Source of the DNA: Thelocarpon superellum
Lineage: Eukaryota
Direction: 5' to 3'
DNA: 38,176 nt
Assembly (NCBI GenBank): GCA_026025795.1
Contig: JAPEUG010000140.1
Span: forward strand, 1 to 38,176
A program made the translations under genes and the position numbers. The notes beneath the pieces were generated by a model. The model worked only from the letters and a program-made list of their open reading frames with translations. It searched no databases and had not been told where the DNA came from. Shown one piece after another: positions 2,115 to 38,058 of the stretch (within the stretch, counting starts at the first letter, position 1; each line of letters starts with the position of its first letter).

Positions 2115-4612
2115 TTATGAATTCTCTTCCGCCACCGGTGCCAAGATAGGAGAGAGGGTAGGAGGAGGCGGGAGGTAGAGTTGTGGAAAGGTAGGGTCCG
2201 CGTCGGTATATGAAGCGGATGAGGATGAGAACGAGGACGAATAGGTCGAGGCGGGTTCGGGAGGCGAGGGGAGGATGAGCGAGGTAGAAGTCGATGTAGA
2301 TGTAGCTGAGGACGAGGACGTGGAAGAGGTCGAGGTGGACGAGGTGGAAGAAGAAGTCGACGAAAAAGACGTCCCCGCCTTTTTCAGTGCAGGCACTGGA
2401 TCCACTGCGTTCTCCTTCGCCTTGGCCGGGGCTGGTTGCACGGTCTCCTCTTCTCCCTCCACATCTTCCCGATCCAAACAAAACAGATCGTCTGTTTTCA
2501 TGAGAAAGCGTGAGTCGCGCGCACTCGCGCGAGAGGTTGATTCACAGCCTCCCACATCCGTGGCAAAGACCCTGGCATATGCTTCGGCCGCGTCCACGAT
2601 CCTTGACACCGACGTCACCTGTTCGCCGTCGTAGGATAAGATCGGCATGAATTCGATCTCGGGGAGGTCGCCGTCGAAGGGGAGGAGAGAGATGAGGGAC
2701 GATGGGCTAGATGCCAAGACCGGCTCCGTCTTTCGCGAAGCCATCAGATACGTCGTGTGGTGGTCGCGATCTTCGCCCTCCTTGAGTGGCGTGTCCGCAA
2801 ATTCTTCCGGTCGTCGCCACAGCTCTCCATGCACCGTGGCCATGCTGACGCCAGTTTCGAAATTCGGGTAGAGCATGTAATAGCCCCGCACGCGAAACAG
2901 CTCCAGGAGGAACTCCATCCACGACGGCTGGTCCTTGGTCACGAGTTTCCTGGCCGGGGGCAATTTGCGCAGCTCTTGCGCCTCGAGTCGTCGGCTCATG
3001 AAATCGTGAAACTCCACCCACTTGTCCCCGAAGAAGAGCGCCGCGTTGCTGTTGGGCGCTTGCCACAGAAAAGACATGAGTTGCGGAACGGGCGCGTCCG
3101 TATCGTCCGAGTCATCCTCTCCAATGGGCGGCGTGAACTCCGCGGTGCCGTTGAGATGACTCGTGGGTAGCTCCAGGCTGATGCCGAACATGTCGCTGGC
3201 CGCCGGTCCGCTGTAGGAAGAGTATTTGTACTCCAGTAGGTGGTACTTGGCAAAGTGGTAGAACAAAGGCGAGACCTTGGTCTGCGACGACAGGACCAAC
3301 AGGTGCGCATGTTTTGGGTCGTTGGGATAGAACAATTCCACAAAGCGAAGTGACGCCTCTTCGCTGGAGACGCCTCGACGGTGGATGCGGTGCCGCAGCA
3401 ACAGCTTCTCGTTGGCTTGGTGCTCATCGCGACGCTTTGGCGGCCATTTGAAGTTGTCGAGAAATTGTTGCGTCGCCGTGTCGATCACCGGAGGTAGTTC
3501 GATCGTCAGGCGTGGGATATTTGACAGGAAGAATTCCACCCGTTCCAGCGACTTCAATAGCTGGATGACGGCGCCAGACGACTTCGGGTCGACATGAACG
3601 ACGATATCAATCGACGCTTTGTTCCACGCTGCGGCCATCAGCATGATGATCTCATCGCGACACCCCACACCCCCCAGCCTACATACCCTTCAGCGACTGA
3701 CTGTCCAGCCGGGTGATCCACATCATGTTTTCCGCCACATCGCTCGGCAATCCGATGAGTGGCGCGGGCGTGCCCAGGTCATTCAGCTTTTCCTGCATCG
3801 AGTTCACAAAGTGATGTTCCTCCTGCCCCGACGCATCGACGAGGACGGCTTGAGGGTGGATAAACTCGTTGATATGGAACAGGGCACCTTGGATGGCCAC
3901 CTGCAGGCGGAGGTCGGTGCTGTACGAGGAGTAATCGGGCCGTGCATCTACGTCCATCTTAGTACCTTTCTCGAAGGGAGCTACGATGCCACATACCATG
4001 CCAAGTCACCTTGCAGGACTCGTCGACCCCGTTGATGCTGAGAATCTCCTGCAAGGGAAGATCATCGCGGCCCATCAGGGCAAAATGGACCACGCTCCGC
4101 CTCCAGCGCGCCATCTCGCACGCAATTGGGATCAAGACCGCGGCGCTTTTCAAGCTGGCTGCGGCGAACAGCACATGTCGGTTCCGCTCCCCCCAGGACC
4201 GGCCTTTGCCGATGGCTTGGAGCGACGTCGCGAGCTGGAACAGCTTGATCGGTCCATTGTAGTAGTGCTTCAGGGTCTCGGCCCCAGTCTCGGGCACCGG
4301 AGGCGGTTCCAGCGGCACCGACGCTTGTGGCCGCGGCCGGCTAATGCCGGGTCCGGAGAGGGGCGTCCACGGGGTGAAGGTGACGTTCGAGAGAGCCGGG
4401 CTCAAGCCGTGCTCGGATTGCTGTCGGCGGTAGAGAAGCACGACAAACAGGAGGAAGAGGACGATGGGAAGCGCCCGTTTCCGTCGAAAGCGAAAAGTCG
4501 ATCGCCAGACGGACGGGGCCAAGGGCAGGGCACTCCGCTCGCCCGGTCGGTGGTCATCGTCTCGTTTACCCAGCTCCTCATCGCCGGGGAAGATGCGCGC
4601 CGGTAGGGGCAT
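2115..4612 (-). CDS. Conserved fungal type II membrane glycosyltransferase-2-like protein (exons 4612-3997, 3947-3687, 3628-2115)
   Basis: Starts MPLPARIFPGDEELGKRDDDH, then a basic patch and one TM helix (ALPIVLFLLFVVLL). Family-like blocks WHDARPDY, LLKSLERVEF, FLWQAPNSNAALFFGDKWVEFHDF, DDLFC. Introns 3948-3996 and 3629-3686 have gtatgt donors and restore frame. Confidence 0.8.
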
Positions 4613-5311
4613 CTTGCCGTCGGTCGTGATGGAGGTGCTCTCTAGGAGCCGAAAGGAGGGTGAGCGGCATGCAATGGGTCGGTTGGTGGCATCGGCGGAC
4701 AATGGATGCCCAGACACGGCGGGCTCAGGGTAGTAATCTGCGCGAGAAGAGATCCTATCAGTGCGGGTCATGGTCAACGGGTCTGATGACAGACATACGG
4801 TCGCATTCGCAGAGTCAACAGGCACCAGGATCACATCCTTCTGATAGAGGGATGGCCGCCGTTGGGACAGATGGCTCTGTGCAGCTTGGGCCAAGTGAGG
4901 GACGATCACTGACGATCACTGAGGAACACGCCTACTTTGACGAAGCGCGAGCTCGATGCCTGGCGCCGGGTCGGCGGCCCCTTTGGAACCGTCGGTGTTC
5001 CGCATCGCCCTGCCTTGCTCTCTGACCCTGCATACGACCTGGACTTCGTGTAGATGAAACTCTAAGGGACAAGACCCATCGCTCCTCTTATCAAGGCTAC
5101 CCTACGAGGTGGCATTCTTGCTGACATCGGTGGAGCGTGTCGACCAATCCATTCGATCTACGCCCCTCACGTCGCGTGCTCTGGGGGCGCCCCGGACATT
5201 CGTCCGATGACGGGTCGAGACCTGCACGAGCACAACCACTAAACCCTTTGTCATCATTGCACAGTCTCCCCAACGCACACTTTTACGACGAGGCGAGGCA
5301 CAGAACTGGGT

Positions 5312-19730: not shown

Positions 19731-22637
19731 ATGGGTGTGCCGGATCCCCGGACTCTGCCCCTGGTCCCCCTCGCCAACGATGCCGTTCTCCTTCCCGGCA
19801 TCATGTTGCGGATTCCGGTCGCCGATCGGCCCGATATCATCGCCGTATTATCCAACCTCTACGGTCGCGCAGCGACCGCCAAGTCGCGAATCTCCCGAGC
19901 GCTGTCGACCATCGGCTGTGTCCCGCTCAACTCGTCGCTGCTTAGCCCGGACGGGCAAAACCTCATAACCGAGTCGTCAGACAAGCCCTCAATCAGTGGT
20001 GACAGCACGCCCGTCGATGCCGCACACGCAACGGCTCACGATCTATTCCGTTATGGCGCAGTCGCGAAGATTTCGGGGGTGGAAGGCAAGGGAACAGGCG
20101 AGGTGGCCCTCCTGGTGGAAGGCATTGGTCGATTCCACATCGACAAGTTCACGCGAGAAACGCCCTTTTTCGAGGCCGTGGTGAGCGACCTCGCAGATTC
20201 AGGTACGTAGGCCAGGACGCTGTGGCATTGTGGAACGGTGTAAGCAACTGATCACGCCGGCAGTGATCGAGGCTTCCGACATCACCTCCCAGGGGCTGTT
20301 CGCCCACCTCAAGCAACTATCGAGAGAATTGCTCGCGCTCCTGCGCCTGGCCTCGCTCCTCCCACGAGTCTCGTCATCTAATCTGTCGCCGATGATGGCG
20401 AAGCGCCTTGAGGCCTTCGTTGCGAACAAGAATCTCGATCAAGCCGGAATCCTAGCTGACTTTATGGCCAACCTCGTCGAAGCCACCAAAGAGGAAAAGC
20501 TGCAGGTTCTAGCGGCCGCAGAGATCAAGGTACGACTGGAGCGGGTCATCGAGCTGCTCGCGCGACAAGTCAATAGCATCAAGAGCAGCGTCAAGATCAC
20601 GTCCATCACGAGTACTAGCTTCCCTGCTGGCATCGATCTGGATAAGCTCAACAAGCGGCAGCGCGATGCTCTCACTCGCCGGGGCATGGGAGCGATCGTA
20701 CCGTCGCAGGTGTCTGGGTCGCATGGTGATGAGGCCGACGACGAAGTGGACGAGCTGGACGAGCTGAAGAAGAAGCTCCACGAGGCCAAGTTAACACCGG
20801 ATGCGCAAAAGGTGGCGGACCGGGAACTCCGGCGGCTCAAGAAGATGAGTCCCGCCCAGGCCGAATATCAAGTGTGTCGGAACTATCTGGAGAACCTGGC
20901 CGAGATCCCTTGGAGCAAGACGACCGAAGACCAATTGGGTGCCGAGACCCTGGCGCGTGCGCGCAAGCAGCTGGATGACGACCATTACGGGCTTGACAAG
21001 ATCAAAAAGCGCTTGCTCGAGTATCTAGCTGTGCTCAGGCTCAAGCAGGCCGTCAACGCCGACCTCGACGCGCAGATCGCCGAGGCCACCAACGACGCCC
21101 GGGCTATCAGCCCCCCGGCGCCCTCCGACTTGAGCCCCGACGCCGACCCTTATATGGCGGACGGCAAGGTGCAGATTCTTCAGAGCAAGCGCATGGTGGA
21201 CAAATCGCCGATCCTACTGCTCGTGGGGCCCCCCGGCACGGGCAAGACGAGTCTAGCCAAATCCGTGGCGACTGCCTTGGGTCGAAAGTTCCATCGGATC
21301 TCCTTGGGCGGCGTGCGCGATGAGGCGGAGATCCGTGGACACCGGCGGACGTACGTGGCGGCGATGCCGGGCCTTATCGTTAATGGGCTCAAGAAGGTCG
21401 GTGTGTCGAACCCCGTCTTTCTCCTCGACGAGATTGACAAGGTGGGCACCTCCAACTTCCACGGCGACCCGTCGGCAGCCATGCTCGAGGTTCTGGACCC
21501 TGAACAGAACTACACCTTCATCGATCACTACGTGAATATCCCTATCGACTTGAGCAAGGTTCTCTTCATCGCGACCGCCAATACTCTTGACACGATCCCA
21601 CCACCCCTACTCGACCGCATGGAGACCATTTCCTTGTCCGGGTACACAACGCTCGAGAAGCGGCACATTGCGAGTCGGCACCTGATCCCCAAGCAGATCG
21701 GCACCAACGGGCTCCAGGAGGCGCAAGTCCGTTTCGACGACGCAGTCTTGGATCAGATCATCACCGCCTACACACGCGAATCGGGTGTACGCAACCTGGA
21801 ACGCGAGATTGGGTCCGTGTGTCGAGCGAAAGCGGTACAATTTGCCGAGGCGCAAGACAGTGGTCACCTAGAGACATACCGGCCGCAGGTCACGGTCGCG
21901 GAAGTCGAGGACATTCTGGGCGTTGAAAAGTTTGACGAGGAGATCGCCGAGACAACGAGCCGGCCGGGCGTCGTGACGGGACTGGTGGCGTACAGCAGCG
22001 GGGGCAATGGCAGTATCCTCTTCATTGAGGTGGCCGACATGCCCGGCAGCGGACGCGTGCAGCTGACGGGCAAGCTCGGAGACGTGCTGAAGGAGAGCGT
22101 CGAGGTCGCCCTGACCTGGGTCAAGGCGCATGCCTTTGATCTCGGCCTCACCCTCGACCCCCGCGAGGACATCATGAAGAATCGCAGCGTGCATGTGCAT
22201 TGCCCGTCGGGCGCCGTTCCCAAGGATGGACCGTCGGCCGGTCTGGCGCACACCGTGGCCTTGATCTCGCTCTTTTCCGGCAAGGCAGTGTCGCCGACGC
22301 TGGCCATGACGGGCGAGGTCTCGCTCCGTGGGCGTGTCACCGCTGTCGGAGGCATCAAGGAGAAGCTGATCGGTGCTCTGCGGGCCGGAGTCAAGACCGT
22401 CTTACTGCCCGCACAGAACCGCAAAGACGTCAAGGACCTCCCAGACGAGGTCAAAGAGGGATTGGAGATCATCCCTGTGGCGTATGTGAACTCTTGGCAC
22501 TGAGCCTTCTCGTCCGAAAAACAACGACTGACTCTGCTGTGGCATCTAGGCACATCTGGGAAGGATTGAGGCAAGTGTGGCCCGACACCCACTGGCGCGG
22601 CGAGGCGCATCTAGCTGGCATTGAATCAAGGCTCTGA
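19731..22637 (+). CDS. LONP2: Peroxisomal Lon protease (LONP2-type; exons 19731-20202, 20264-22481, 22550-22637)
   Basis: LON N-domain (LPLVPL..VLLPG), Walker A GPPGTGKT, Walker B LLDEIDK, catalytic PKDGPSAG and GGIKEK, C-terminal PTS1 -SRL. Confidence 0.95.
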
Positions 22638-22951
22638 GGTGCGAGGTGCAAGGTGCATGGCAAGCGGAGTTTTTCAGCACAAGGGCGCCTTCAAGATCTT
22701 TTGCTGTGAGAGATGACGTGCTGCTCTTTGACATGTCTTGTCGCTTGAAAACTACCAAGCATATGAATTCAACGTTATACATTGAACGGCGTACCATTCT
22801 ATCCTCTGGGTCTGATAGTCCACTTGAACGTCGATGCATTGCTCGTGGCCAGCCAGGTCCAATCACAAGACAATGCACGTGACCTGACTGTTCGGACACG
22901 GACGCTTTGGTCGCCCAGACCTTGGGGTGAACTCCTCGTTTAGCCATGGTA

Positions 22952-23094
22952 CTGTGGAGGCTCCATACGGGAGCTCAAGGCTTCTGAGTAAGCCGCTTCA
23001 CGTGACCCACAATAGCTGTATATCAGAACAACGGATAGCTTCCGTAGAATAGACCACCCATCTCCAGTGGAATAACCGGGGTGCGTCAGTACGA
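22952..23094 (+). repeat. Dispersed ~143-bp element, copy 1 (candidate structured ncRNA or non-autonomous element)
   Basis: Aligns to 28517-28662 with about 120 of 146 identities by hand, including perfect blocks of 25, 12, 24 and 18 nt. Flanks are unrelated. Confidence 0.9.
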
Positions 23095-23712
23095 TTACGG
23101 GCGGGCCGTCACCGCCAACTTGCCTTTCGGAGAATGAGCTATTTTCTTGTCAGGCTCTTACTCATGCCTGCTGCTGGGAGGAGCGTCAGCGGGCACATCA
23201 CCTTCCTCGACAGGTCGACCGGTGGGTAGTACCGCCCGCCGTGCATAAGCGAGAAGCCTCACCCACCGCCTGCATGGTGCTAGAATACATCCTCACCTGC
23301 ACCTTTGCTCGCGCCTTCGTTGCAGACACAAGGAGCCCCACAGTCTTGCATCGGAGATCATGGTAGGTCCCTGCACTTTACAATGGCTGGCTGCTCGACG
23401 TCTTCATCCGGCTGGACCCCCGAATCGTTGCATCTGCTTCAATTTGAGGCAGCAGGCGATACCGCGCGCGCTGACCTCTGCATCTCCACACGTCATGGTG
23501 GAAGTGGCCTTTGCTCCCTCTATCAAGCCGTTCCCGCGCCGAGTCATGCAAGCACTTCGCTTCGTCCTATGACAAGGATCTCCTCCGTTGCACGGGTCCC
23601 GTGCATTCTCACCCCTCCCACAGCAGGTCAGATTCTCATCTACTCTCCACTCTTCTCCTCCTTCTCTGCCGCTTTCGACTATCTTCTCTTGAGCTTCGGC
23701 ACAACGTGAAAC

Positions 23713-25457
23713 ATGATCCTCCACTTATGCCTGATCATCGTGTGCGTGCTACTGCTCTGTCTGCGCCAGAGCCTGACCGAGACGTGCAAATGTGGTCCCA
23801 GAGACGCGTGTTGGCCGGACAAACAGGCGTGGGATGAGCTGAGCCAGGACGTCGGCGGCCGCTTGATCCCCACCGTCCCCATCGGCCATGTCTGCCATAG
23901 CCCTACTTACAACGCGACCGCCTGTGTCCAGCTCCAGCAGGCCTGGGACCTATCCGATACACACGAGACCTCCTCCTCCTCGGTGATGCAGCGGTGGTGG
24001 GCCAATTTTTCCTGCAACCCCTTCGATCCACCATCCAAGCCCTGCAGGATCGGTGACTATGTTCGCTATGCCATTGATGTTGCGACCGAGGATCACATCA
24101 TCAAGGGGATCCAATTCGCTCAGCGTCACAATATCCGACTGGTCATCAGGAACACGGGCCATGAGTACGCAACCCCACTCTGTGCGAAGATTCCTCCCAA
24201 CTAACTGGAGACAGTTTTCTCGGCCGATCCACGGGCTACGGGTCGCTGGCATTATGGATGCACCATGTCACCGGTCCGCAATTCATAGCGAACTACACCA
24301 GTCCGCAGTACCGGGGACCCGCGGTCAAGGTCATGGCCGGAGACCAGGTCGACGACCTGTTAGCCTATCTGCAGAGGCAGGGCCACGTCGCTGTCGCTGG
24401 AACCTGCCCGTCCGTTGGTATGGCCGGCGGCTACACTTCAGGGGGAGGGCATGGGACTCTCATCAGCCTCTTCGGCTTGTCTGCCGACAACACCCTAGAA
24501 TTCGAGGTCATCACCGCCGCGGGCGAAAAGATCACGGCCTCCCCTAACCAGAACCAAGATCTCTACTGGGCCCTGAGTGGCGGTGGGCCGGGCAACTACG
24601 CCGTAGTCTGGTCCATGACTCTGAAGGTCTTTCCTGATTTTCCCGTCGCCAACGCGATCCTATCTTTTGATATTGGCAACCACACGGAAGATACGTTCTG
24701 GCGCGTCATCGACACTTGGCACACCCTCGTGCCCGCCATCAACGACGCTGGGGCTTACGCCTATGCCTACTACCAGCAGGGCCACTTCCAGCTCTTCCCA
24801 CTGCTCGCCTTCAACATGAGCACGATCCAAGCCGCGGATATGCTCGCTCCACTGCGGCAACAGCTCGAGCGTCTCGGCTTCCAATACAACTTCACCACGC
24901 AGGCCTTTCCCAACTATATCACGGCCTACCACGCCTCCTTTCCCGAATGGTTTGTCGGGACCTTCACGGTAGCCAGCCGACTGATCCCGCTCGATGTGGT
25001 GCAGCACAATGCGAGCGGCCTATCGAGCACGGTGCGGGGCATCTTCGACGACGGCGCGCTCATCATCGAGCAGGTCATGGCGCCCACCTTGCGCGCCGCC
25101 GGTCATCCGGATAACGCTGTCCTACCCGCATGGCGTTCCACCTCTATCGACCTCGTCGTCGGCAGCCCGTGGAATGATACAGCACCCGTGGCGGAAGACG
25201 TGGCACAGCAGAAGCTTTTCACTGACACCTGGATGCCCGCTCTGCAGGCCCTCACCCCGAGTAGTGGGGTGTACATGAACGAGGGCGACCCGAATGATCC
25301 TGAGTGGCAGAGCAACTTCTTTGGCGTGAATTATGGGCGTTTGGCCGCGATCAAGCGGAAGTGGGATCCCACCTCTTTCTTTTACGCCCGACAGGCCGTT
25401 GGGAGCGAGGCGTGGGCGGAGAATGATGAGCAAGTTCTCTGCCGCACAGCCGGATAG
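23713..25457 (+). CDS. Secreted FAD-linked oxidoreductase, berberine-bridge-enzyme-like (VAO/PCMH, AA7-like); intron 24165-24214
   Basis: Signal peptide, CKCGPRDACWP, spliced RNTGHDFLGRSTG (FAD-linked His), AGTCPSVGMAGGYTSGGGHG (second FAD-link Cys), and BBE motif YMNEGD...FFGVNYGRL..IKRKWDP. Confidence 0.93.
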
Positions 25458-27320
25458 GAGAATATCGCCTATGGTGATGATGAAGAAGACCTTGATCTCG
25501 GACGAAAGTGATGGCAGAAGCGAAGGCGCATTCCTTCTGGGTAAGCGTGAGCGTCCGTTTGCACCGAGAGCGGTGTAGCCTCAGTTTCGCGCCGAATGCA
25601 AACATTATACGGCCGCACAACTTATGTGGAGAGGTGAGCAAGTCCGCATTGATCGCCCAGGCCCGATGACAGGGGCGTGGCTAGGAGCATTGAGAGGGTG
25701 GTGTAACAGAACTCGGACGAGTGTCGAACGCGTTGTCCATTGTTCACAGAGTCGCAAGCGATCGTCTCAGTTGGCGAGTAAAGTTTCCCCGGCCTCCATT
25801 AAGCTCGCAGGTGTCGTCGCAGGTGCCCCCGTAGCACAGCCTCAGCAGCCCCCACGTGTTCATGCCTCGGTCGTTAGGACTTGGTGATCACAGAACCAGT
25901 CTTTAGTCACAAACAACCCATGCCCACACCGGTATGATGGTGCCCGACAAGAGTCCTGGGTGTGTCACACGTCGAGCGTCACGAATCAGGCTCGCCGTCT
26001 CAGGAGAGTGAGCCGGCCTCTGCAGAGTGCTTCCTCGCGCATCAATCTTTGGTGGTCGGTCCTCCGTCTGCAGGCATGCCCTTTGGGCCATCGCCTCCCT
26101 CACTTGAGCCTCCGAGAGGTACGCGCCTTGTGCCTCGTGGGGGATGTCTACCTTGCTCAGAATGGCATGGGGCACCTGCTCCGTTTGCTCCTGCCACTCG
26201 CGACCGAATCGTGAGATGTGACAGTTTCGCTAGAGGCTCGATCAGGAATCACAGCCGCCACACTGGAGTGAGCAGTCTCTTACGATCGATGGACGCAAGT
26301 CTGTCCAACTCCGGGCCCAGCACGGCTGCGCAGGTAGGTGGGGGTACCCTGTCCATTACCTTCGGTGCACAGAGTGCTTGGAAGGCATAGAGGGTTTGCA
26401 ACTTGATGGTGGAGCTGGAGGTATGCAGACTCGTGTCTGGCAATTGTTACATTCGGGTTACTCGCGAGCACTTTAATCGGTGGCAGACATCTGCCTAGAA
26501 CGCTCTGGACATCGCCATGCAGACCTCTGCTCGGAAATTTCGAAAGGAAGTCGTTGCCGAGAGGCCTCGCATGGCCGTGGAGTCCCTGGTCGATGTTTCT
26601 GACACTGGGCTCGAGACCTCTTCGTGGCTTGGGCGAGCTTGGACGAGGGCACGCAACCTTAATTAGGTGGCGGGCGTGTGCCGAAGCTCCGACGCGGCCA
26701 CAGTAATCTCTACCTCTTAGCGAGTTTGGTTGTAAGCCCGGTCCACCCTAGCACATCGCACGGTCATTGCGCGTGCGTGGAGTAGCGATCATCATCTCCC
26801 CACCAAGAGCTAATGTGTCCAGAAATGCTCGAATTCCAAGTCAGAGACATGTTCTTGCAATGCGAGAGGGAACCATTGTTCTTCAGAACGTGGCATTGAC
26901 GCATGGACGTCATGAAGTGCTGGGCTCGCGCGTGCCCGTCACAGCAGAAGGCCTTTGTTTTGCCTCCCGCCTGAGACAACATCACTTATGCTGCCCCTCA
27001 ACCACTCGCTATGCAGGCATTTCTCGTCGCCAACCACCTTGCCGTGATAGTGACTAGGACCAGAGACTCGCTCTGACACCATGTGAAACGGAGGTATATG
27101 TGAGGTGTTTGAAGCACCTCCCGATACTCTTTCCCACTCAATGCCACCCCCGTCTCCTGCACGTGTCCCAGCTCCACGATCCAATGCCGCCCCTTTGAAA
27201 CGCCGCAGTCCAGCGTTCCATCACCAGCCTACCCACGATGACACGATCGTCCAAACACCGAGGGCTCTTGAAACCGATTGGAACGCGGACATATCAATCA
27301 TGCTAACCGCCGCCCGGTGG

Positions 27321-27328
27321 ATATAAGA
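27321..27328 (+). promoter_or_regulatory. Probable TATA box of the CFEM gene
   Basis: ATATAAGA about 140 nt upstream of ATG 27464, followed by a pyrimidine/CATCA-rich leader. Confidence 0.45.
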
Positions 27329-27463
27329 AGGACACCAGCCGTCGGCCGCAAGGAACTAGATCACGCCTCGCACTCTTCTCTTCGGACTGCCATCACATCA
27401 TCACATCATCGCGTTATCGCATTGTCGAATTTTTGAATTGTCAAACTCATCACTCCACTCGCG

Positions 27464-28044
27464 ATGGCTTGTTCTATTGTCTTCAAATTTGCCGCCTTGG
27501 TACTTTTGGCCTCAACGGCGACAGCGCAGCTATTGACGGCCATGGAAGGTATCCCCTTCTGCGGCATGAGCTGTTTTACAAGCGCTCTCCAATCCGACGG
27601 CTGCCCTAGCCTGCAATCCTATGCGTGTCATTGCCAGGACACCGCTATCCAGCAAGGAATCATCAACTGCGTTGTAGGGGATTGCGACTCGATCCAAGAC
27701 GTGCAAAGTAAGATCCCAGCCTTGCTATCGCCGTTCCAAGGTCTAATGCCCCCCTCTCAGAGACCCGCACGACTGTCGTGAACATCTGTAATCAGGCAGG
27801 CGTCAGCATCACGCTTCCCCCAGTCCCGGCCACCCTTGCAGAGGCTCGGGCTGAGGTGGCCGGTACGGCAGGCTCTACTACGGGCGGTACGGCAGGCTCT
27901 ACTACGGGCGGTACGGCAGGCTCTGCTGCGGGCGGTACGGCAGGCTCTGCTGTGGGCGGTACGGCAGGCTCTGCTGCGGGCGGTACCGCGGCCGCTCCGG
28001 TTGGCCGTCGTTCGAACAGGCGCCATCGGCCTCGCGCCGAATAA
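27464..28044 (+). CDS. Secreted CFEM-domain protein with GTAGS repeats and Arg-rich tail (exons 27464-27707, 27761-28044)
   Basis: Signal peptide and eight Cys in CFEM spacing (PFCGMSC..GC..ACHC..NCVVGDC..NIC). The eighth Cys is supplied after intron 27708-27760. Confidence 0.88.
27862..27981 (+). repeat. Coding minisatellite, 5 x 24 bp (GTAGSTTG / GTAGSAAG)
   Basis: GGTACGGCAGGCTCTRCTRYGGGC repeated five times in CFEM exon 2. Confidence 0.95.
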
Positions 28045-28516
28045 GCAGGACATTCGCACAGTTTCTACCCGGGCGTTGTTTGTGGCCGTATAGCTTTCAC
28101 CGAATGGAACGAGCATTGTGCATGGATGCGGGGGTGAGAGTTTACTGTCAGGAACGGTGTTGACGGTGGCAAGCACAAGCTCGAGGGCGGGCAGGTCTCT
28201 CCTTGGCTCTTTCTTTTATTATATGTTTGACTTCATACGTTTGGTCAGGCAATGCATTCATCGAAACGCTGGGCCCCCTGTAGCACCATCAACTGTCGCC
28301 CCCGTGCGTCCACAGCGTGGCGGCAGCAGACAGTCCGCGGAAATCTAGGCGCCTGGCGGTTCTCGCACACGACGGATATGCAGCCTTCTTTAACAGGCCT
28401 CATGGCTCCAGGGACTCGTGAAAGCCTTCATCTAGAATCCGAATAATGGACTCATTGCCACATCTCAATACTGGCAGATGCCACCACAAGCGCTTACACT
28501 GTTGATCGGAGACGTT

Positions 28517-28662
28517 CTGTGGAGGCTCCATACGGGAGCTCGAGGCTTTGGATGAAGCTGCGGCACGTGACCCACCATCGCTGTATATTATTAGAATGAC
28601 AAATAGCTTCCGTAGAATAGACCACCTATCTCCAGTCCATCTTTCGGGGTGCGTCAGTACGA
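28517..28662 (+). repeat. Dispersed ~146-bp element, copy 2
   Basis: Direct-orientation homolog of 22952-23094. Confidence 0.9.
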
Positions 28663-31600
28663 ACCCTACTCGAACTGCTCGGTGTAGCGTCATTTCGAGA
28701 TCTACCGAGGCTTACCAAGAGGTGTGCGTGACAGGGACGAATCTGTCGGAAGCCCTACCGAGCTCCGGGCTAGTTATTGCACGGGCGCCGGGCTCGTCCC
28801 GCCTGCGCTACGGCGTGCCCCTCACCCATCCGGGCAGTCGTATCCCCCTCCCCACCTCCAACGTCTACGCTACAGCGGAGTGCCTGACAAACTTCCCGCC
28901 GATCATGCCGCGCTGCAGGGACACGGGATGGGCGCACCTACTTTGTACGAGTAGAAAGCTGTCATGGCCAACCACCAGCCATCATCCAGGATGAATAAGA
29001 ATCCCCGTCTCACCTTCTCGCCGCAGATAGCGACCACGGTAGGAGGATGCGCAGGCGCACCCGCAGATGGCACGGACGACACGGCGAACTAAGTGGGCCG
29101 ATGGGCGAAAAAGCTCCACTACCGCTCAAAGACGTCCTAGCCGACCACCGCCAATAACCTCGCTTGCCGGGGAAGGATTCGTTCCGCGACGCGGGCCCGT
29201 TGCGGCTGCACTGGCCATGCAGCTCCACATTCTCCGACGTCGGCCGGCCTGCAGCTGATCGGTACCTGCATCTCACCGATGTACTTTGCCTTGACTACTA
29301 GTCCTATACATCCCGTCCACTACGACTGCGGAAGTGCCTCGGATGAGTATGTCGCCTAGTTCCTCGTACGCGACAAGGAGCATGCCCAAATTGTTTTGTA
29401 GTACGTCACATCAGTAACATAGTGTGTAGCGAAGCTATTGGGGTCATGGCCATCCACAGAGCAACGGAGCGACGGACGAGTACTTGAATGGCGCGGACGG
29501 TGCAGACAAGGATGTCTGGAGAGGCGCGCGGCCCTGCCGAGCCGAACCCAATTCAAGGGTGCACCACCACTACGACGCTCCCGATCCACCCTCCCATCAC
29601 GCCATCAGTGACATTCGTCGGCTCCTTACCCGGGAACGAGGAGAGGTCCTCGTGTCTCGTGTCAGGCGAAAACGGTGGCATGTCAAAGTCGCGGGCCGTT
29701 ACCGCACGAATCTCCCTTCACCGGCACCCAACATTATTCTTATTCCGCCGCGGTAAGGTATGGAGTGCGCTAAGTCGGGACTTCGGGGCACAGTACAGTC
29801 GTCCTCCTGCCATGCTGTGACTAGTATCGTAGGTGGCAATTTCCCTCTATTCCATTGGAATTGTGCCCGCCGTCACGCTGCATTAGCTCTCGCTGCAGAG
29901 GGTCACACGCTGCAGATGTGAGGGCGTTTGGTGGAGCCAGCCGAACGGCAGCTGTCACGATGCCGTAGCATACAATTGTCACAATCTCACCTCCCTGCAA
30001 TCCGATGGTCTTTCATCCCGGATTTGTACCCCACCCCACCATGCAGCTGGTGTGACCGGCTTGCGATCGTGGAGGCCTAAGCTGAGGGTAGGGGGGCGCC
30101 AGGGGAGGAGCCGGGGTGAGGCGGGTGAGCAGCGTCCGCCCTATGGAGTCGGACCTCTGCTTTCTCCGAGGACGATAAGAGCTCGTATCCTTAAATGGCG
30201 ATGTCTTGGCTGGCTCGGACCTGAGAACACCTCCCTGGTATAGTTGACGTGCCGTTCACCATCATTTCCGTACAGTAGTCCGGCGTACTGCCTGTGCAAC
30301 TACCAGATGAATTTGGTTGAAGGCTCATCGCGAAAAGAAAGATGTAAGATCTAAGAAACAAAGAATACTACACCGTAATCCCGGGGGTGCTCGCAGATAT
30401 GATTTGAAGGGCTTACATCATTCCTTAATGGCGGCCTATGTGACGCCTGGGCCGTTAAGCCACCAATGTCGGGAATGCGAGGGTCTGATCCCACCCAGCT
30501 AGGATCTGAATTCTCCACCCCGAGCTGGTGGCCGGATTCATCAAGTACTTATAGCTCGGGATAACTATAGCGCGGAGGCGACCCTAGACTAACTGGTGCA
30601 AGACCGACTGCAAATGCCAAGGCGCCCTTTTCCATAATTCTGCGGAGAACGTCTTGCAGAGGAAAGGAGACGTCTTGCACCCTGAACAGGACGGCGCGTG
30701 GCTGATCAACGCTTGTATAGCCACTACGGTACCGCCTGAAAAGCTCCGAGTGTGACGTGGTGACTGGTACGGGTACGGTGCGAGAAACTAGGATCGGTTT
30801 CGTCGGTCAGCTTACCGAATAGCCCGCTTGGATTACAGATCTACCCTGGGACTCGCCGGCGCGACTTCGGCCTCTGACAAGCGGGAGAAGAGGGATTTGT
30901 TTTCAACTTCAGTTCGGTGGGAGCTAATTCTCGATTTGTTCTCCCAATTGAAAGATGCAGTCCGGGAATCAAACATTATCCGTTGAGCGTAAAGAGCGGG
31001 CAACATCGAAGACTCTGCCCATGACCCACGCAGCGTCATCTATCTTCCCTTTTCCAACCGATCCGTGGACAAAAACAATACCCGTGGCGCGCCTTTCGAA
31101 AAGCCCCTGCGCCATTGCTCCAGGTAGAGACAGCTGGGCGGCACGAGGGTCTGCAGATAGCACGGCTGACGTGAAAAGCATGCATCTTCCCGGCAGAGAC
31201 CAGTACCGGCTGGTCATGTCTGGAAGCATATCAGCGGATTTCATCATCCCGCTTTAGCCATCTTCCAAGAGCCGTGCAGGGATGATTGTAGAGCGGATCG
31301 GCATGATCGTGTTCGAACCAAAGTTGAAGAGTCGTTTACCCGGGAAGACAAAGCTTGCCAACGCGTTTCCTCATCCCAATCCGCACCACCTTGATTTCGG
31401 GTTGCCATTTCGCAAAATCGTCGGTAGCTGGCCACGCTATCAGCGACGATGACACGCCGTCTGTAGGCACTCGTTTGACAAGCTGGAGGCTAGGCCAACA
31501 TGAATCTCGATCCTTGTGGCGGCACGAGTACTCACGTAACCACAGCCGAGGAAAGCCCGCGACAGGCATACAGCACAGTTACGACTCGCGACGAGGATAC

Positions 31601-34060
31601 GCTGCAAATACAAGTACTTCGTACATGGAACCCAGGATCCATCGAAGGAGCGCCCGATTAGAATCCGCCGCACTGTGCTCAACAGCACAGCAGCCGAAGG
31701 GCTGCCGCATCCTCCCCGGACCTATGACCAGTGGCTCCGTAGCAGCACTACTAGTATTCACAGTGGTAGTGATTGTAGGTGTGTGGACGAGGACAAAGTG
31801 CGGTATTTATGGTGGTGGTAGAGGACACCCACCGGGCTCGTTGACACTTCACGCTGGGGCCTGCCCACGTTGTGAGCCGGGTGAATTGCTGCTCGTGCCG
31901 CGATCAGGTTTGCCTGTAGGCGATAGCTTCCCACTCCCTCCGACACGCAGGCACGGGAAATTGTCTCTACGCTACGCGACGCTCGGGGAACGGAATGGAC
32001 AGGTGCCCAAGCGCTACATTGTTGCATGCAGGTGAGTTGGCTAACTGCATCCTGTCGTAGTCGTCCACCCTTGTCCCTCCCACCGACGGCACAAACTATG
32101 TTAGCACAAAGAATGTCGTTGCTAATACTAGATGCACGCTGGGGCAAACGGAGGGCGTCGCTAGGCTCAATGGCCCCTCCCTGGCCTCCTGCCACGCGGT
32201 TTACCGGGAACACCCCTGTAGCTTCGCCGTCGATCCCCCAACGCGAAGGCCGAGGGAGCTCCTACCCTTCCTCCAGACGTGTTTGAACTCGCACCAGCAC
32301 GTTTCGTCCGGGCTACAAGTACGTTCTGCAGGCGCGGAGGCCTGCCCAGGGGAGCGTTGGACCCGCTCGACTCTGCTACCACGCAAGTACGAAGTACAAA
32401 TCGGTGCTGACGGCTCGTCTCCATCGGAGCAGCGTCCTGGCCGCGCCAGCGGTCCACGAGCATTAATGCACGCATAATAATTGGCCTCTGCCTACGCCAC
32501 CTGGAGTCAGACGGCCACACTCTGCCCGAGCAGGCGAGCCACGAGGCCGAGGTACAATGAGACGCGGCCTGTGTGCCACTCTGTGAGGCACTCTGTGGGA
32601 GTACCCGGGCCATTTCGATTTTCTTTGCTGCGTGGGCGCTGTGGCCGTGGGATAATTGTCCCGTACGAGTACCCGGACAAGTAGCCGACCAGATCAGCCA
32701 AGATGGCATGACTACTCGGATTCATCGTATTCGTCTACGCGGAGCGACGCAAGGCCAGCCCTGACGTGCGACAGGAGGGAAGGCCGTGACCCAGGTTTGG
32801 AGATGTCCGCTACACCTTGGGGGGGGGTCGGTCGAATCTTATCTCCCTTCCCGTGAGCTTCGCCGGCCAGACCGCTCCATGTCCTACGACGGCCTGGTCC
32901 TCGACCAGGTGAGCGCGTGGTGTACTAACCAGAGACGGACGGATGTGCTGAAGCGCGCTTCAGCGGTGGAAAATAGCTGAAGAGCGTGCAAGGGTTCCCT
33001 CCCACCACAGCACCGTAACGCCGGCCCGTCAACATGGGCGCCATGGTGTGATCTCCGATCTTCAATCGATCCATCGCTGAGTCCAGCCGGCGTCGAATAG
33101 TGGCCGTGCTGACAATTAGACGACCGCGCCGGCATGGCGGTTGGACGGCACCCGTGACCTCTGCCACCCTGCCACCCTGCCACCGTCGCCCTCCTCTCAG
33201 TGGTATGCTCGCCTGCTGCTGGGGCGAGGGCGAAGTGCGTAAGTGCGTGGGTGCGTGGGCGTGTGGCGCCTTCGGTCCCACCTGCCACCTATGTTACCCT
33301 CGGCTGCAAAGGGTAAGAACAAACCACGGCCTCGCAGACTCGAGCACCCTTGCAGATTCGAGCACGGTCGCAGCCTAGATGATCGTGGTCGATCACCCTA
33401 CACTGCCCCCTGGTATCTATCGTCCGGCACCCGGGGCCCCGTCCCCCGGACACCCGGCACCACGTGGTGCAGGCCTGTTTGGGCCGCCACGGCGGCTTCA
33501 TCTCGACCGCCCTGGCGGCCATGACCGGACAGAGCTGCGGGCCTCTCAAGCGACATGACTTATCGATTGCCCCCGATGCGAGATGGCTTCGTCGTCCTCG
33601 ATATTGGCTGGGGCATGTCCCCACCGGGGCCACCTCGCGCCCCGACTCCCTGTCAATCCTTTCGGGCGCCCCGACCGTGCAACGGTTGCAGCCAGCACGC
33701 GGTGGGAGATGTGCCGTGCCCGCCTGTGGTCCGTGAGCTGCCATACGTTTCTCCGGAGCGGCGGTAGCCGGAGCCGATGCGGCGCTTTTCAGGCCAAATC
33801 GGCTTGCGTGCGGCTGCGTGCGCCGTACCTGCCGCACATTCGCGTGTCATCGCGCGGGACGATCGGCGGCTGACCGTCCAAGCGGCGGGACAAGACGTCC
33901 CTGAGCCACCTATCCCTGCTCTTCCAGAACACGGCCAATCTCAACGCGCTCCCGGATTCGTTGCGCGCTCTGTGAATAATTGGGGCGCTGGCTTGGCCAA
34001 TGGCTCCGCCCTGGTCCTCCTCCCCTAGCTACCAGCGGCGGCCTCGTGGCGCGGCTCCGA

Positions 34061-34133
34061 CCCTCCTCCACCCCCCCCCCTCCCCCAACTTCCCAACCCT
34101 ACCCACCCTCCCACACCCCCTCCATCCCCCCCG
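34061..34133. other. C-rich tract (G-quadruplex-capable on the minus strand) upstream of the Zn2Cys6 gene
   Basis: More than eight runs of CCC or longer, separated by short spacers. Confidence 0.6.
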
Positions 34134-34780
34134 CGCTCCACTGACGCGCTCGCAAACGAGATGGCCCGATCGCAGGTGACGGGTGCTTGCTGTGCCGGGC
34201 GCGAGCTGCTGCTGCCCGCTGTCCTGATCAGCCCCAGAGGATCCTCGGTTAGACCAAGCTTGCACACGTCTCTTCGACGGCACTCTCATCTCGCCGCCGT
34301 TGCCCGCCGTTGCGGGGTGACGATGCTCTTACTCTCTCTCCATCTCTTCTCTCGTTCATCTCTAGCTCCCTCACCGTTGACGGGATCCATGGGTACGCAT
34401 TAAGTGTCAGGCACGCTCGAAGCGCCCACGCCACTCGCCCTGTGCTCGATTGACCCCGGACCGCGGCTCCCGAGGCGCCTCCGAGCCGTACCTCTGGTCG
34501 AGCCCGCTGTGGCCAATGCGACCTCGCGCCACATTCGAGCTCGCTCCCACCGGTCGCGCACACCGCGGCGCTCCCCCGGCCAAGCCATATGCACTCGCCC
34601 TCGTCCGGTGGGGCCCTTCGTCAGTGGACCAGGATCCATTCCTGCTCCTAGCCACGTGGTGGACTGGGCTCGACGCATCAATCCCGGCAGCCTTCACGTC
34701 ATCTACTTTGCTTCTTCTTCCACACACCCTTCTCAACTCATCTGAAGCACGTCGGCCCAGGGGTCGCCAGAGCCTTGCCC

Positions 34781-37259
34781 ATGATTGGGACCAAGACTCT
34801 CGTTGCAGCGCCGCGGTCGACCGTCGGTGCCCGGCCTCCGTCCAGACTTAAACTGGACCACACCTCGACGGGCCCGCACGAGCACCGGCACCTCTACTCG
34901 AGGTCCTATCCCTCTCCTCCCATGTCTGCATCGCCACAGCGCCCTGATGCCCGACGTGACGATCACCATGGTCTCCATCCCCGCCGGGGGGACCAACCGC
35001 CGTCGCAAGAGCTCGCCCTGACCGCTCTGCATGGACGAGCCGGCCGTGATGCCGTACCAGCGCGGCCTCCGGTCGGCCCGTCGGACACCACGCAATCGCC
35101 GTCGACCTCAGGATTCATCTGCTCGTCCGAGCAAGGCGATTCGTCTGGACCTTCCCACGGGCTTTCGTACACCACGAGAGCGCCGTTGACTGCGTCCTTT
35201 CCATCGGGCTCTCTCCAAGAGGAGCCGTCCAACGCTACCTCCTCCAAGGGCACCCGCCGAGCCAAGGCCCACGTCGCGTCGGCGTGCGTCAACTGCAAGA
35301 AGGCACATCTTGCCTGCGACGGTGAGTACGACGATGCGTTCTCAACTGATTGTGTTCTGCGTGGCATTGGCCATTCGTCTCGGGTGCTACACCACGCTAT
35401 CTTCCGAGGCTGGAATGCCATCGCCAGCTGCCTCTCCTCTTCTCTCTCCTCGTCTCTTCCCTCAATTGGTCACGCACACATCAGCTCTATTGTTCTATTG
35501 TCAGCGTGCTCGCTTCGCCTGTCTCGCCCACTCTGTCGGTCTCTCATTTCCCAGTGCGGTACCGCCCTGGGTGCCGCGCCACCGATCCTGCGGCCTTCGC
35601 ATCCCGCTGTTACTCTTTGCTTTATCCATCTCCGCTCTTGGGCAAGGCTGGGCGCACGACCGCGGCAACGACGGCCACCGAGGGTTCGTCCGTGCGCGTT
35701 GGTGGCGTTCTGACTTTTCCCACGTGGTCGAAAAACAAACTTTCGGCTGCTGAAACTTACCCCTGTCGCCACGTTGTTTCGTGCCAACCGGACTTCTTCC
35801 CGTATCTCGCCCTGCTCTCATGTCTGATCTACCCTATCATTGTCGTGTGGCTATCTTTCCTCCACGTGGCAACAGGAGACTAATGGACCGGGGTGTCGCG
35901 TGTTACAGCCGATCGACCTTGCCGAAGATGTTTGGGTTCCGGCAAGCAGGTAGGATGCCTGGCCAGCCAAACCTCGTCACCGCGTGCTAATGTCCGTGCC
36001 AGGATTCCTGCCTCGACGTGCAGCACCGGAAACGTGGACGGCCGCGCCTGCACGATGAGCGCGAAGCCTCCTATGCCGCTCCTGGGCCTGCTATGTTTGG
36101 TCCGGACGGCACGGCACGACCGCCACTGGATCCATCCGCCCCGTCGGCGCCGTCGCGCGGTGATCCTGGTCCGCGACACGCGCAGAGCGCCCTTCGTGTG
36201 GCCCCCGGGTCCGGCGGCGCACTCAATCCCGGCACGCGTGCTCGGCACCTTCACCATCCATCCCTGCCAGAGGCGCAGGGGACGGCACGGCCGGCACCTT
36301 CAGCGCGTGTCGATCCCACGCAGAGCCTGGCCGTGGCGTATCTCCACCCGGACTTGGTCTTTGCCAAAGCCAGCGCGAGCTTTTGCGACGCCCTGCACGC
36401 CCGGGACTTGGGGCTGGATGGCCGTAGCTTGCAAGACGTGGTCCAGCCGTCCGACTGGCCTAAGCTCGATCGTCTACGACGGGACCTCCACTTCGAGCGC
36501 GAGGCGCACCGCTCGCACCGCCTCCCGCCCATCTCTGGGCGGCGAGAAGACGAGGCGATCATGGCGGTGCGAGACGAGGATCTCGCTGAGGTCACCAGCG
36601 ACTTCATCGAGCGATCCGACGAGCTCGCCTTCCTCGTGGACGGTCACATCATCAAGTGCACCGTTCGTCTCCGCTTGGCTCAGACGTCCGTCTACTTTGT
36701 CGTCATGCTTTTGCCGGTGAACACGTCGCGCGGCCAGCTCGGTCGCGGGTCACTCTCGCCCTTTCCTCCGCCCCCATACGTAGGGCTGGCGACGCCGGGA
36801 CCCCCGCCCCTCATCTTCCCAGCGCATCCGCTCCCCGGCCGTCCTGTCGCACGTGGCTATTCGGACCCAAGTCCACATTCGTCTCGGGTGCCCTGGCGAG
36901 GGCGTACGGCGGGACTGCCATGGGGTGACTTTCACGGCCGGGTGGAATCGCCTGCCGGACCCCCCGGAGACCCGGTCCCGGGCGAGCCTTACCAGTCGAG
37001 CCCCGCCTTATCGTCTGCGCCCTCCCACCGCAGCGGGCCGTCGCTCCCACCCTCGGGGGTGACGACTCCTCGACGGCTCAGTGTGGCGTATGAAGCGCCG
37101 GGGCTGGCGCTCCAGTGGGACGTGCAGCTGGCTCCTATCCGAGGCCCTGTGCCTGGCTCCTCCGAATACCCGCCGCGCAGCCGGCCTCCCGCAACGGAGG
37201 CGACGGCGGCATCGCCACGCAAACGAAGTAGGGTGTCGGTTGAGGAGATGCTCGAGTGA
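34781..37259 (+). CDS. Zn(II)2Cys6 transcription factor with probable PAS-like C-terminal region (exons to 35321, 35909-35949, 36003-37259; true start may be 34323 or 34389)
   Basis: Spliced cluster HVASACVNCKKAHLACDADRPCRRCLGSGKQDSCLDVQHRKRGRPRL. N-terminal SYPSPPMS motif. Segment AVAYLHPDLVFAKASASFCDAL..GRSLQDVV is PAS-like by inference. Confidence 0.9.
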
Positions 37260-37823
37260 GTCAAAGTCGGTCGCATGGGTCCAAAGCAGGACATGATGCT
37301 CCCAACGAAGGAGCGAAGCGATGGCGTCGGTGCTCTATCCACGTTTTGATCTCCTCCCCGTTGCTGTCCGACAACCAAGCTATCCGTGTGCAACATTGGA
37401 AGGAGGATGTTGGCATCACGAGAGATTTTGTAAAGATACCCTCCACGTCTTTGTTTGAAGGGTCTTGACTGTTTCGCGTTGGGAAAACATGGTAGGGAAG
37501 GGCCGTTTCACTGCGTTGAATGTCTCCGGCGCGGGTCAGATCGATCGGTACGGGAGGGGGAAGGGGGATTTGCAGACAGAAAAGACCGGACGCGGTAGAT
37601 AGTTGACTGCGACTTTCTCCGCCGAACTATCAACGGACAGTATTCTACGCGCCCCGTCGCAACGCATCCCATCATAACCCAATCCTTTGTACGTCCTCGG
37701 TGGCCCTGGATCGATGGCCGCGCTCCGACAATTGGATATCGGGCACGCTGCAAGATCGGTGGGAGCGCTACCTGATGGACCTTCTTGACTACCGCGTCTG
37801 GTCAGTCCTGCACCCGCCCTCCC

Positions 37824-38058
37824 GTAGGAGGTAGATAGGAGGTAGATAGGAGGTAGATAGGAGGTAGGTAGGTAGGAGGTAGGCAGGTAGGAGGTCGATA
37901 AGTAGGGAGGAGGGAGGTAGGAGGTAGGTAGGTAGGAGGTAGATGGGTAGGAGGTAGGTAGGTAGGAGGTAGATAAGTAGGAGGTAGGTAGGTAGGAGGT
38001 AGGCCGGTAGGAGGTCGATAAGTAGGGAGGAGGGAGGTAGGTAGGTAGGAGGTAGGTA
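37824..38058. repeat. Purine-rich compound satellite (GGAGGTAGATA 11-mers, then ~15-bp GGAGGTAGGTAGGTA units with a 120-bp higher-order period)
   Basis: Directly visible. The block GGAGGTCGATAAGTAGGGAGGAGGGAGGTAG occurs at ~37890 and ~38010. Confidence 0.95.

Follow-up and report, generated by a model that had tools for sequence, protein, structure and literature searches.

The stretch of DNA analyzed here is contig JAPEUG010000140.1 of the Thelocarpon superellum assembly GCA_026025795.1, and its full 38,176 nucleotides are referred to as the window. It contains two copies, designated A and B, of a repeat element of 144–149 bp (Table 1). The window is nuclear DNA of a fungus. In it, MLH1, a MatE transporter, RPA2, a DBP10-type helicase, a Lon protease, a BBE/FAD oxidase and a CFEM-domain protein were found, CFEM being a fungal domain. 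Both copies are intergenic and lie downstream of genes on the + strand, and neither of the two interrupts a recognizable reading frame. Copy A is located between the Lon protease and FAD/BBE oxidase genes. Copy B follows the CFEM-domain gene, at the start of a ~3.3-kb stretch in which the sole open reading frame (ORF) of at least 130 amino acids before position 31328 (28506–28994) crosses copy B and has no Pfam match. ORFs across the copies gave no Pfam match, and translation of the element in the − strand frame, which is open through both copies, gave no homologue among proteins in two length ranges (85–2000 and 26–84 residues).

Table 1. Coordinates of the repeat copies, their internal features, family variants and neighboring genes. 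Variants are positions at which ~10% or more of the depth in sequencing run X1 differs from copy A.
Feature	Position	Strand	Remarks
Repeat copy A	22949–23094	+	Core 22949–23092 (GTACTG...CAGTAC); extra GA at 23093–94 common to copy B
Repeat copy B	28514–28662	+	GTTCTG...CAGTAC plus GA
Left terminus GTACTG	22949–22954		Inverted repeat of right terminus; listed family alignments begin at 22947–22949
Right terminus CAGTAC	23087–23092		Listed family alignments stop at 23092 (12 loose ends) or 23094 (8)
Left subterminal palindrome/mini-hairpin	22954–22966		Stem of 5 bp around a 3-nt loop; identical in A and B; no listed family variant at ≥10% of depth
Long-range 9–10 bp stem	22967–75 with 23037–45		Encloses variable middle; identical in A and B; C23043 replaced by T in 22% of family depth
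CACGTG palindrome	22999–23004 (A), 28564–28569 (B)		Invariant in both; no listed family variant at ≥10%
Right subterminal hairpin	23052–59 with 23079–87		Imperfect 7–8 bp stem, hypervariable ~19-nt loop
Variant C>T	22994		9% of depth; G.U kept on + strand
Variant T>C	22997		77% of depth; pair broken (C.A) on + strand
Variant T>G	22998		11% of depth; unpaired position
Variant C>T	23024		92% of depth; unpaired position
Variant A>G	23030		86% of depth; G.U kept on + strand
Variant C>T	23043		22% of depth; G.U kept on + strand
Variant G>A	23052		29% of depth; 3' hairpin closing pair broken (A.C) on + strand
Lon protease gene	20185–22637	+	66-nt intron, then last exon; stop codon 22635–22637, 311 nt upstream of copy A
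FAD/BBE oxidase gene	23713–25457	+	ATG at 23713, 620 nt downstream of copy A
CFEM-domain gene	27464–28044	+	Apparent stop 28042–28044, 469 nt upstream of copy B

The alignment of copies A and B spans 149 columns at 81.9% identity (blastn E 7.6e-38), with 24 substitutions (11 transitions and 13 transversions) and one 3-nt indel. It agrees with the first-pass annotation of this DNA, in which two sharply bounded copies of ~82% identity, lying between unrelated flanks, had been described: likeness ends sharply on both sides, and the sequences beyond are unlike each other. These copies form the sole long dispersed direct repeat of the window. A blastn search of the window at word size 7 returned no third copy, the next-best matches being at most 25 nt long with E≥0.64. 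The element is therefore “two-copy”, as annotated, only inside the window; in the probable source genome, contig depth places it in a high-copy family.

To estimate abundance, contigs from public sequencing run X1, which probably represents the source genome (95% of sampled words of positions 22000–29500 are present), were aligned onto positions 22700–23350 at ≥80% likeness, and 346 pieces were placed. Summed depth was 29,000–40,600 in the fully covered bins of 22964–23073 versus 109–138 on the single-contig flanks, a difference of ~230–330-fold. The steps up and down in depth coincide exactly with the borders of the element at 22949–23094. Among the loose ends listed, those on the left fall at 22947 (7), 22948 (4) and 22949 (11), and those on the right at the two positions given in Table 1; 36 further loose ends lie beyond those listed. 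Beyond the element ends, consensus agreement among the listed loose ends is only 0.40–0.59, so the flanks of family members are unrelated to one another. An organellar or ribosomal DNA origin of the high depth was considered and rejected because the flanks of the placed pieces disagree. This depth is read as a few hundred copies of the element, dispersed through the source genome. This bears out one branch of the first-pass annotation, that of a mobile element or structured transposon end.

The same pattern was seen at low depth in moss-metagenome run X2 (flanks 1.9–3.9, element 18–188). The family appears in moss-metagenome runs X2–X5, of which X2 was the one used for contig alignment. In runs X6 and X7, which derive from other organisms in the same study, no pieces were placed on the element region, although this does not prove absence. 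When two 20-mers from conserved parts of the element were used as exact patterns, no loci were obtained in metagenome contigs, and one of the two also gave none in genome and viral contigs.

Comparison with the family indicates different ages for the two copies. Copy A departs from the family majority at only three listed positions (22997, 23024 and 23030) and is therefore young. At 23024 and 23030, copy B agrees with the majority, but its ~25 further differences mark it as old and decayed.

In the first-pass annotation, preference was given to a multicopy gene for a functional, structured non-coding RNA or a ribozyme, with selection acting on RNA or single-stranded DNA structure. The annotated stems are all present in both copies: 32 of the 32 pairs proposed are standard in each at 18% divergence, with one two-sided change (T22997–A23014 versus G28562–C28579) and four one-sided changes giving G.U. 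When RNAalifold was run unaided, a nearly identical structure of 33 pairs was recovered (−33.9 kcal/mol). The most variable part of this fold is the right-hairpin loop, which differs among copy A, copy B and three other family variants represented by loose ends. Absolute folding energies of −40 to −45 kcal/mol were obtained, and minimum free energy z-scores for single copies, calculated against dinucleotide shuffles, are ordinary (+ strand, −1.96 and +0.24; − strand, −0.50 and −0.82).

Several controls were applied to the consensus fold. Note that a shuffle control of pair counts is uninformative with two sequences (240/500). Null distributions for the consensus-fold energy were generated first by pairing copy A with randomly mutated versions of itself, with 24 substitutions placed at random in each of 400 simulations. 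The observed energy was reached in 2.25% of these on the + strand and 3.75% on the − strand. In a second null (290 simulations), clustering was preserved: the differences retained their actual patchy spacing and were only moved around the element by circular shifts. Here the observed energy was reached in 17% (+ strand) and 8% (− strand). The consensus-fold signal is thus nominal, does not differ between the strands and loses significance once clustering is kept. What had been annotated as structure-preserving variation does not go beyond chance under the circular-shift null, nor is it specific to the + strand, and evidence for selection on structure is weak.

Family variants were also compared with the fold (Table 1). 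The pair T22997–A23014, which had been taken as compensatory, does covary between A and B. In the family, however, C occupies 22997 in 77% of the depth and A23014 has no listed variant at ≥10% of depth, so that the two positions form a C.A mismatch in most copies. It had further been argued that C-to-T changes opposite G, by allowing G.U, point to the + strand as RNA. Three transitions in the family do give G.U on the + strand, but the two pair-breaking changes, 22997 T>C and 23052 G>A, give G.U on the − strand only. A 3:2 split is the expectation for neutral transitions in a DNA palindrome, and G.U pairing therefore gives no reason to single out the + strand. With ordinary z-scores, a fold signal equal on both strands and a compensatory pair that is mostly C.A, the proposed selection on RNA or single-stranded DNA structure is not upheld.

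Searches for known RNA families were likewise negative. No Rfam match reached the gathering score anywhere in the window, ribozyme families included. At E≤10, the surroundings of the copies gave one 18-nt chance match (9.7 bits) near copy A and none near copy B. ARAGORN found no tRNA genes in the window. In the first-pass annotation, no tRNA T-loop, 5S, U-snRNA, hammerhead core or ACA box had been noted either. Neither copy is followed by a T-run terminator, and a few hundred diverged copies with unrelated flanks are unlike a gene family under selection. Although every annotated pair is kept and the fold is recovered without guidance, we find a functional structured RNA barely credible as an account of the element.

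A related possibility is that a small RNA was retroposed, giving a short interspersed nuclear element (SINE)-like family whose fold is needed for recognition by reverse transcriptase. High copy number, unrelated flanks, a fold common to both copies and the nominal depletion of differences in stems (see below) would all be accommodated. Retroposed copies are often truncated at the 5' end, whereas members of this family have a sharp boundary at the 5' end as well as at the 3' end. Neither copy has an A-rich or simple-repeat 3' tail or a variable-length flanking duplication. There is no likeness to tRNA, 5S RNA, 7SL RNA or any Rfam family, and the strand symmetry of the fold signal also speaks against an RNA intermediate. 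We consider this origin quite improbable.

Multicopy spliceosomal introns that spread through genes, known as introner-like elements (ILEs), required separate attention, in which case the copies in the window would be introns of 3' untranslated regions or strays outside genes. In the passages found, fungal ILEs are described as having hundreds of copies, lengths above those of regular introns, stable folds and canonical splice signals (PMC3609843), and the present element resembles them in copy number, in length and in its low folding energy. Similarly, ascomycete introners are reported in part of the literature to lack target-site duplications (TSDs) and terminal inverted repeats (TIRs), and ILEs to be strongly gene-biased (PMC9860276). 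ILEs of Pezizomycotina (PMC3609843; PMC4457414; PMC9860276) and the present element have in common a fungal host, hundreds of copies, a length of ~100–150 nt, a stable predicted fold, an available GT...AG and no clear TSD or TIR. The passages found in PMC4457414 say nothing on splice signals, gene bias, copy number or fold.

Whichever strand is read, the element opens with GT and carries an AG three bases short of its end, giving GT...AG intervals of 141 nt in copy A and 144 nt in copy B, and both copies are oriented as the gene just upstream. As a separate observation, the − strand frame is open through both copies, both intervals are multiples of three and the sole indel between A and B is 3 nt; this may be chance. 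For comparison, six real introns of the window (GT–AG) are 53–75 nt long. Their donors are GTATGT, GTACGC, GTAAGA, GTACGT, GTACGT and GTACGA, all six with G at +5, and all six have a CTRAY motif shortly before the acceptor. The donor of the element, GTACTG (GTTCTG in copy B), has T at +5. CTRAY is absent from its + strand, the nearest on the − strand is 71–74 nt from the acceptor, and neither strand has one in the 70 nt preceding the acceptor. On the + strand, moreover, the region where a branch site would lie is the hypervariable loop, and homology within the family continues for 3–5 nt beyond the AG. Published ILEs, as described in those passages, have canonical donor, branch and acceptor and reside in genes, whereas both copies here are intergenic and neither (0 of 2) interrupts a reading frame. 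An introner-like identity is on these grounds quite unlikely. The element is set apart from ILEs by their published descriptions.

The ends of the element carry further information. In copy A, the inverted ends match over 9 nt with one mismatch (22946–22954 with 23087–23095), and GTAC stands on both sides; around copy B, the left side reads GTTC and the right side GTAC. About 40% of the listed right ends run on through GA, and the consensus of the largest left-flank group ends in AC, as in copy B. The AC and GA, taken from consensus strings of low agreement, hint at a palindromic context C-GTAC-G. Two head-to-tail junctions between copies were recovered. In one X1 contig, 23088 is joined back to 22949 with four letters fitting either side, so that a head-to-tail dimer shares a single GTAC. 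In one X2 loose end, the 3' end of another copy runs straight into G22949.

Repetition of the same four bases on both sides of copy A, around a core that runs from TG to CA (22953–23088), could also indicate the solo long terminal repeat (LTR) of a very small LTR retrotransposon of the kind called terminal-repeat retrotransposon in miniature, with a 4-bp flanking duplication. The flanking bases are, however, a constant GTAC across the family, not specific to each site. Furthermore, no conserved internal sequence continues from either end among the listed loose ends, given their agreement of 0.40–0.59, and the core is only 136 bp, at the very low end for LTRs. A solo LTR is therefore a highly unlikely source of the element.

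Known DNA transposons were compared in the same manner. Canonical Helitrons begin with 5' TC, end with 3' CTRR and insert between A and T. Ends of this kind are absent on either strand of the element, and canonical Helitron ends were rejected from the sequence itself, as was a Tc1/mariner-type TA duplication with long TIRs. To our knowledge, no transposon superfamily has a constant GTAC target. A literature search for GTAC target-site duplications found no such family, judging by titles and abstracts.

We favor the interpretation that A and B are independent insertions of a ~144-bp non-coding dispersed repeat, probably a miniature, non-autonomous mobile element resembling miniature inverted-repeat transposable elements (MITEs). 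This assignment is drawn from the presence of a few hundred copies of a short non-coding dispersed repeat bounded by GTACTG...CAGTAC, and a new MITE-like family is the best reading of the data. Likeness to fungal MITEs, among which are the mimp elements of Fusarium oxysporum, extends to the small non-coding unit, the hundreds of dispersed copies, the gene-proximal intergenic sites, the short inverted ends and the capacity to fold back. At 144–149 bp, the element falls within the ~800-bp upper bound for MITEs. Classical MITEs have inverted repeats of at least 10 bp and a recognizable duplication (TA, TWA, 8 bp and so on), whereas the element has only 6 bp inverted and, as the sole candidate duplication, the constant GTAC. 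MITEs near genes are described for Epichloe festucae (PMC6218096).

In the mechanism that we propose, an enzyme encoded elsewhere in the genome would recognize the short inverted termini together with the palindrome or hairpin just inside each end, move the element as DNA and integrate it at GTAC sites. Mobilization would thus occur in trans. The GTAC on each side would then have arisen by duplication of a palindromic target, always the same 4 bp, or else would belong to the TIR. The common fold of A and B would follow from built-in palindromes and patchy decay, not from selection on RNA. Copy A would represent a recent insertion and copy B an old one.

Several observations weigh against this interpretation. 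No autonomous partner or transposase domain was detected in the window with Pfam. The inverted termini are short, with 6 bp common to the family and none detected in copy B. Because GTAC is constant across copies, it is inseparable from the sequence of the element, and with GTTC on the left of copy B a target-site duplication is unproven. In one X1 contig of single-copy depth, located elsewhere in the genome, two copies meet head-to-head or nested, one of them inverted and joined to position 23059 of the other. GTAC is absent from copy A at 23059, which favors GTAC being part of the element rather than its target. The estimate of a few hundred copies was derived from summed k-mer depth of contigs, which is not itself a copy number. 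Finally, the differences between A and B nominally avoid stems (6 in 64 paired columns versus 21 in 85 unpaired columns, Fisher p=0.018), and some constraint on the hairpins, in DNA or RNA, is possible. Most of this apparent avoidance is explained by the clustering of differences in a small number of hypervariable patches, chiefly the 3' hairpin loop.

Some of these features could be accounted for differently if the repeat were a non-autonomous derivative of a fungal DNA element of a type not yet described. Its hairpin ends, beside a fixed GTAC, would take the place of long inverted repeats in recognition by a single-strand (HUH-type) enzyme or a tyrosine recombinase that integrates at GTAC without a variable duplication. 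Such recognition would explain the hairpin inside each end, the dimers sharing one GTAC and the mild avoidance of stems by substitutions on both strands. We know of no HUH enzyme associated with the element, and we regard this alternative as unlikely. The elements closest to it in design are IS200/IS605 of prokaryotes, and Helitrons and Helentrons with non-autonomous derivatives such as DINE-1 (PMC4067079). These likewise have a short conserved terminal word followed by a subterminal palindrome or hairpin, no variable duplication and dimers sharing the terminal word. With canonical Helitron ends lacking, this likeness is one of resemblance only.

Other features of the window were recorded in the course of this analysis. 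The CFEM-domain gene upstream of copy B contains a 24-nt coding repeat at 27861–27986 (5.2 copies, 96%) that specifies a Gly/Thr/Ala/Ser-rich repeat of eight residues. As translated here, it terminates at 28044 with a basic tail and without a hydrophobic C-terminus, and a last intron or exon may have been missed. Near the left end of the window, a 141-nt unit is tandemly duplicated at 222–504 (2.0 copies, 98% matches), and a 24-nt sub-repeat occupies 175–246. Near the right end, a purine-rich array at 37824–38056 comprises ~15.6 copies of a 15-nt unit (77% matches). The G+C content of 33000–37300 is 60–68% versus ~57–60% elsewhere, and the long + strand ORFs at 34652–35713, 35884–36720 and 35991–37259 have no Pfam match. 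Two − strand ORFs, at 2115–3689 (524 amino acids) and 3959–4915 (318 amino acids), match no Pfam family at E≤0.001.

The interpretation of the repeat as a MITE-like element removes a candidate new structured RNA, and illustrates that two repeat copies with built-in palindromes can mimic covariation. Only if copies at other sites turned out to be introns would it touch on an open question of long standing. The GTAC-bounded, hairpin-flanked ends fit no transposon superfamily that we can name. A short, high-copy repeat family is documented in a fungus, and the same family appears in moss metagenomes. Because it is found near gene ends and carries the invariant CACGTG, a putative protein-binding site, the family could spread regulatory sequence.

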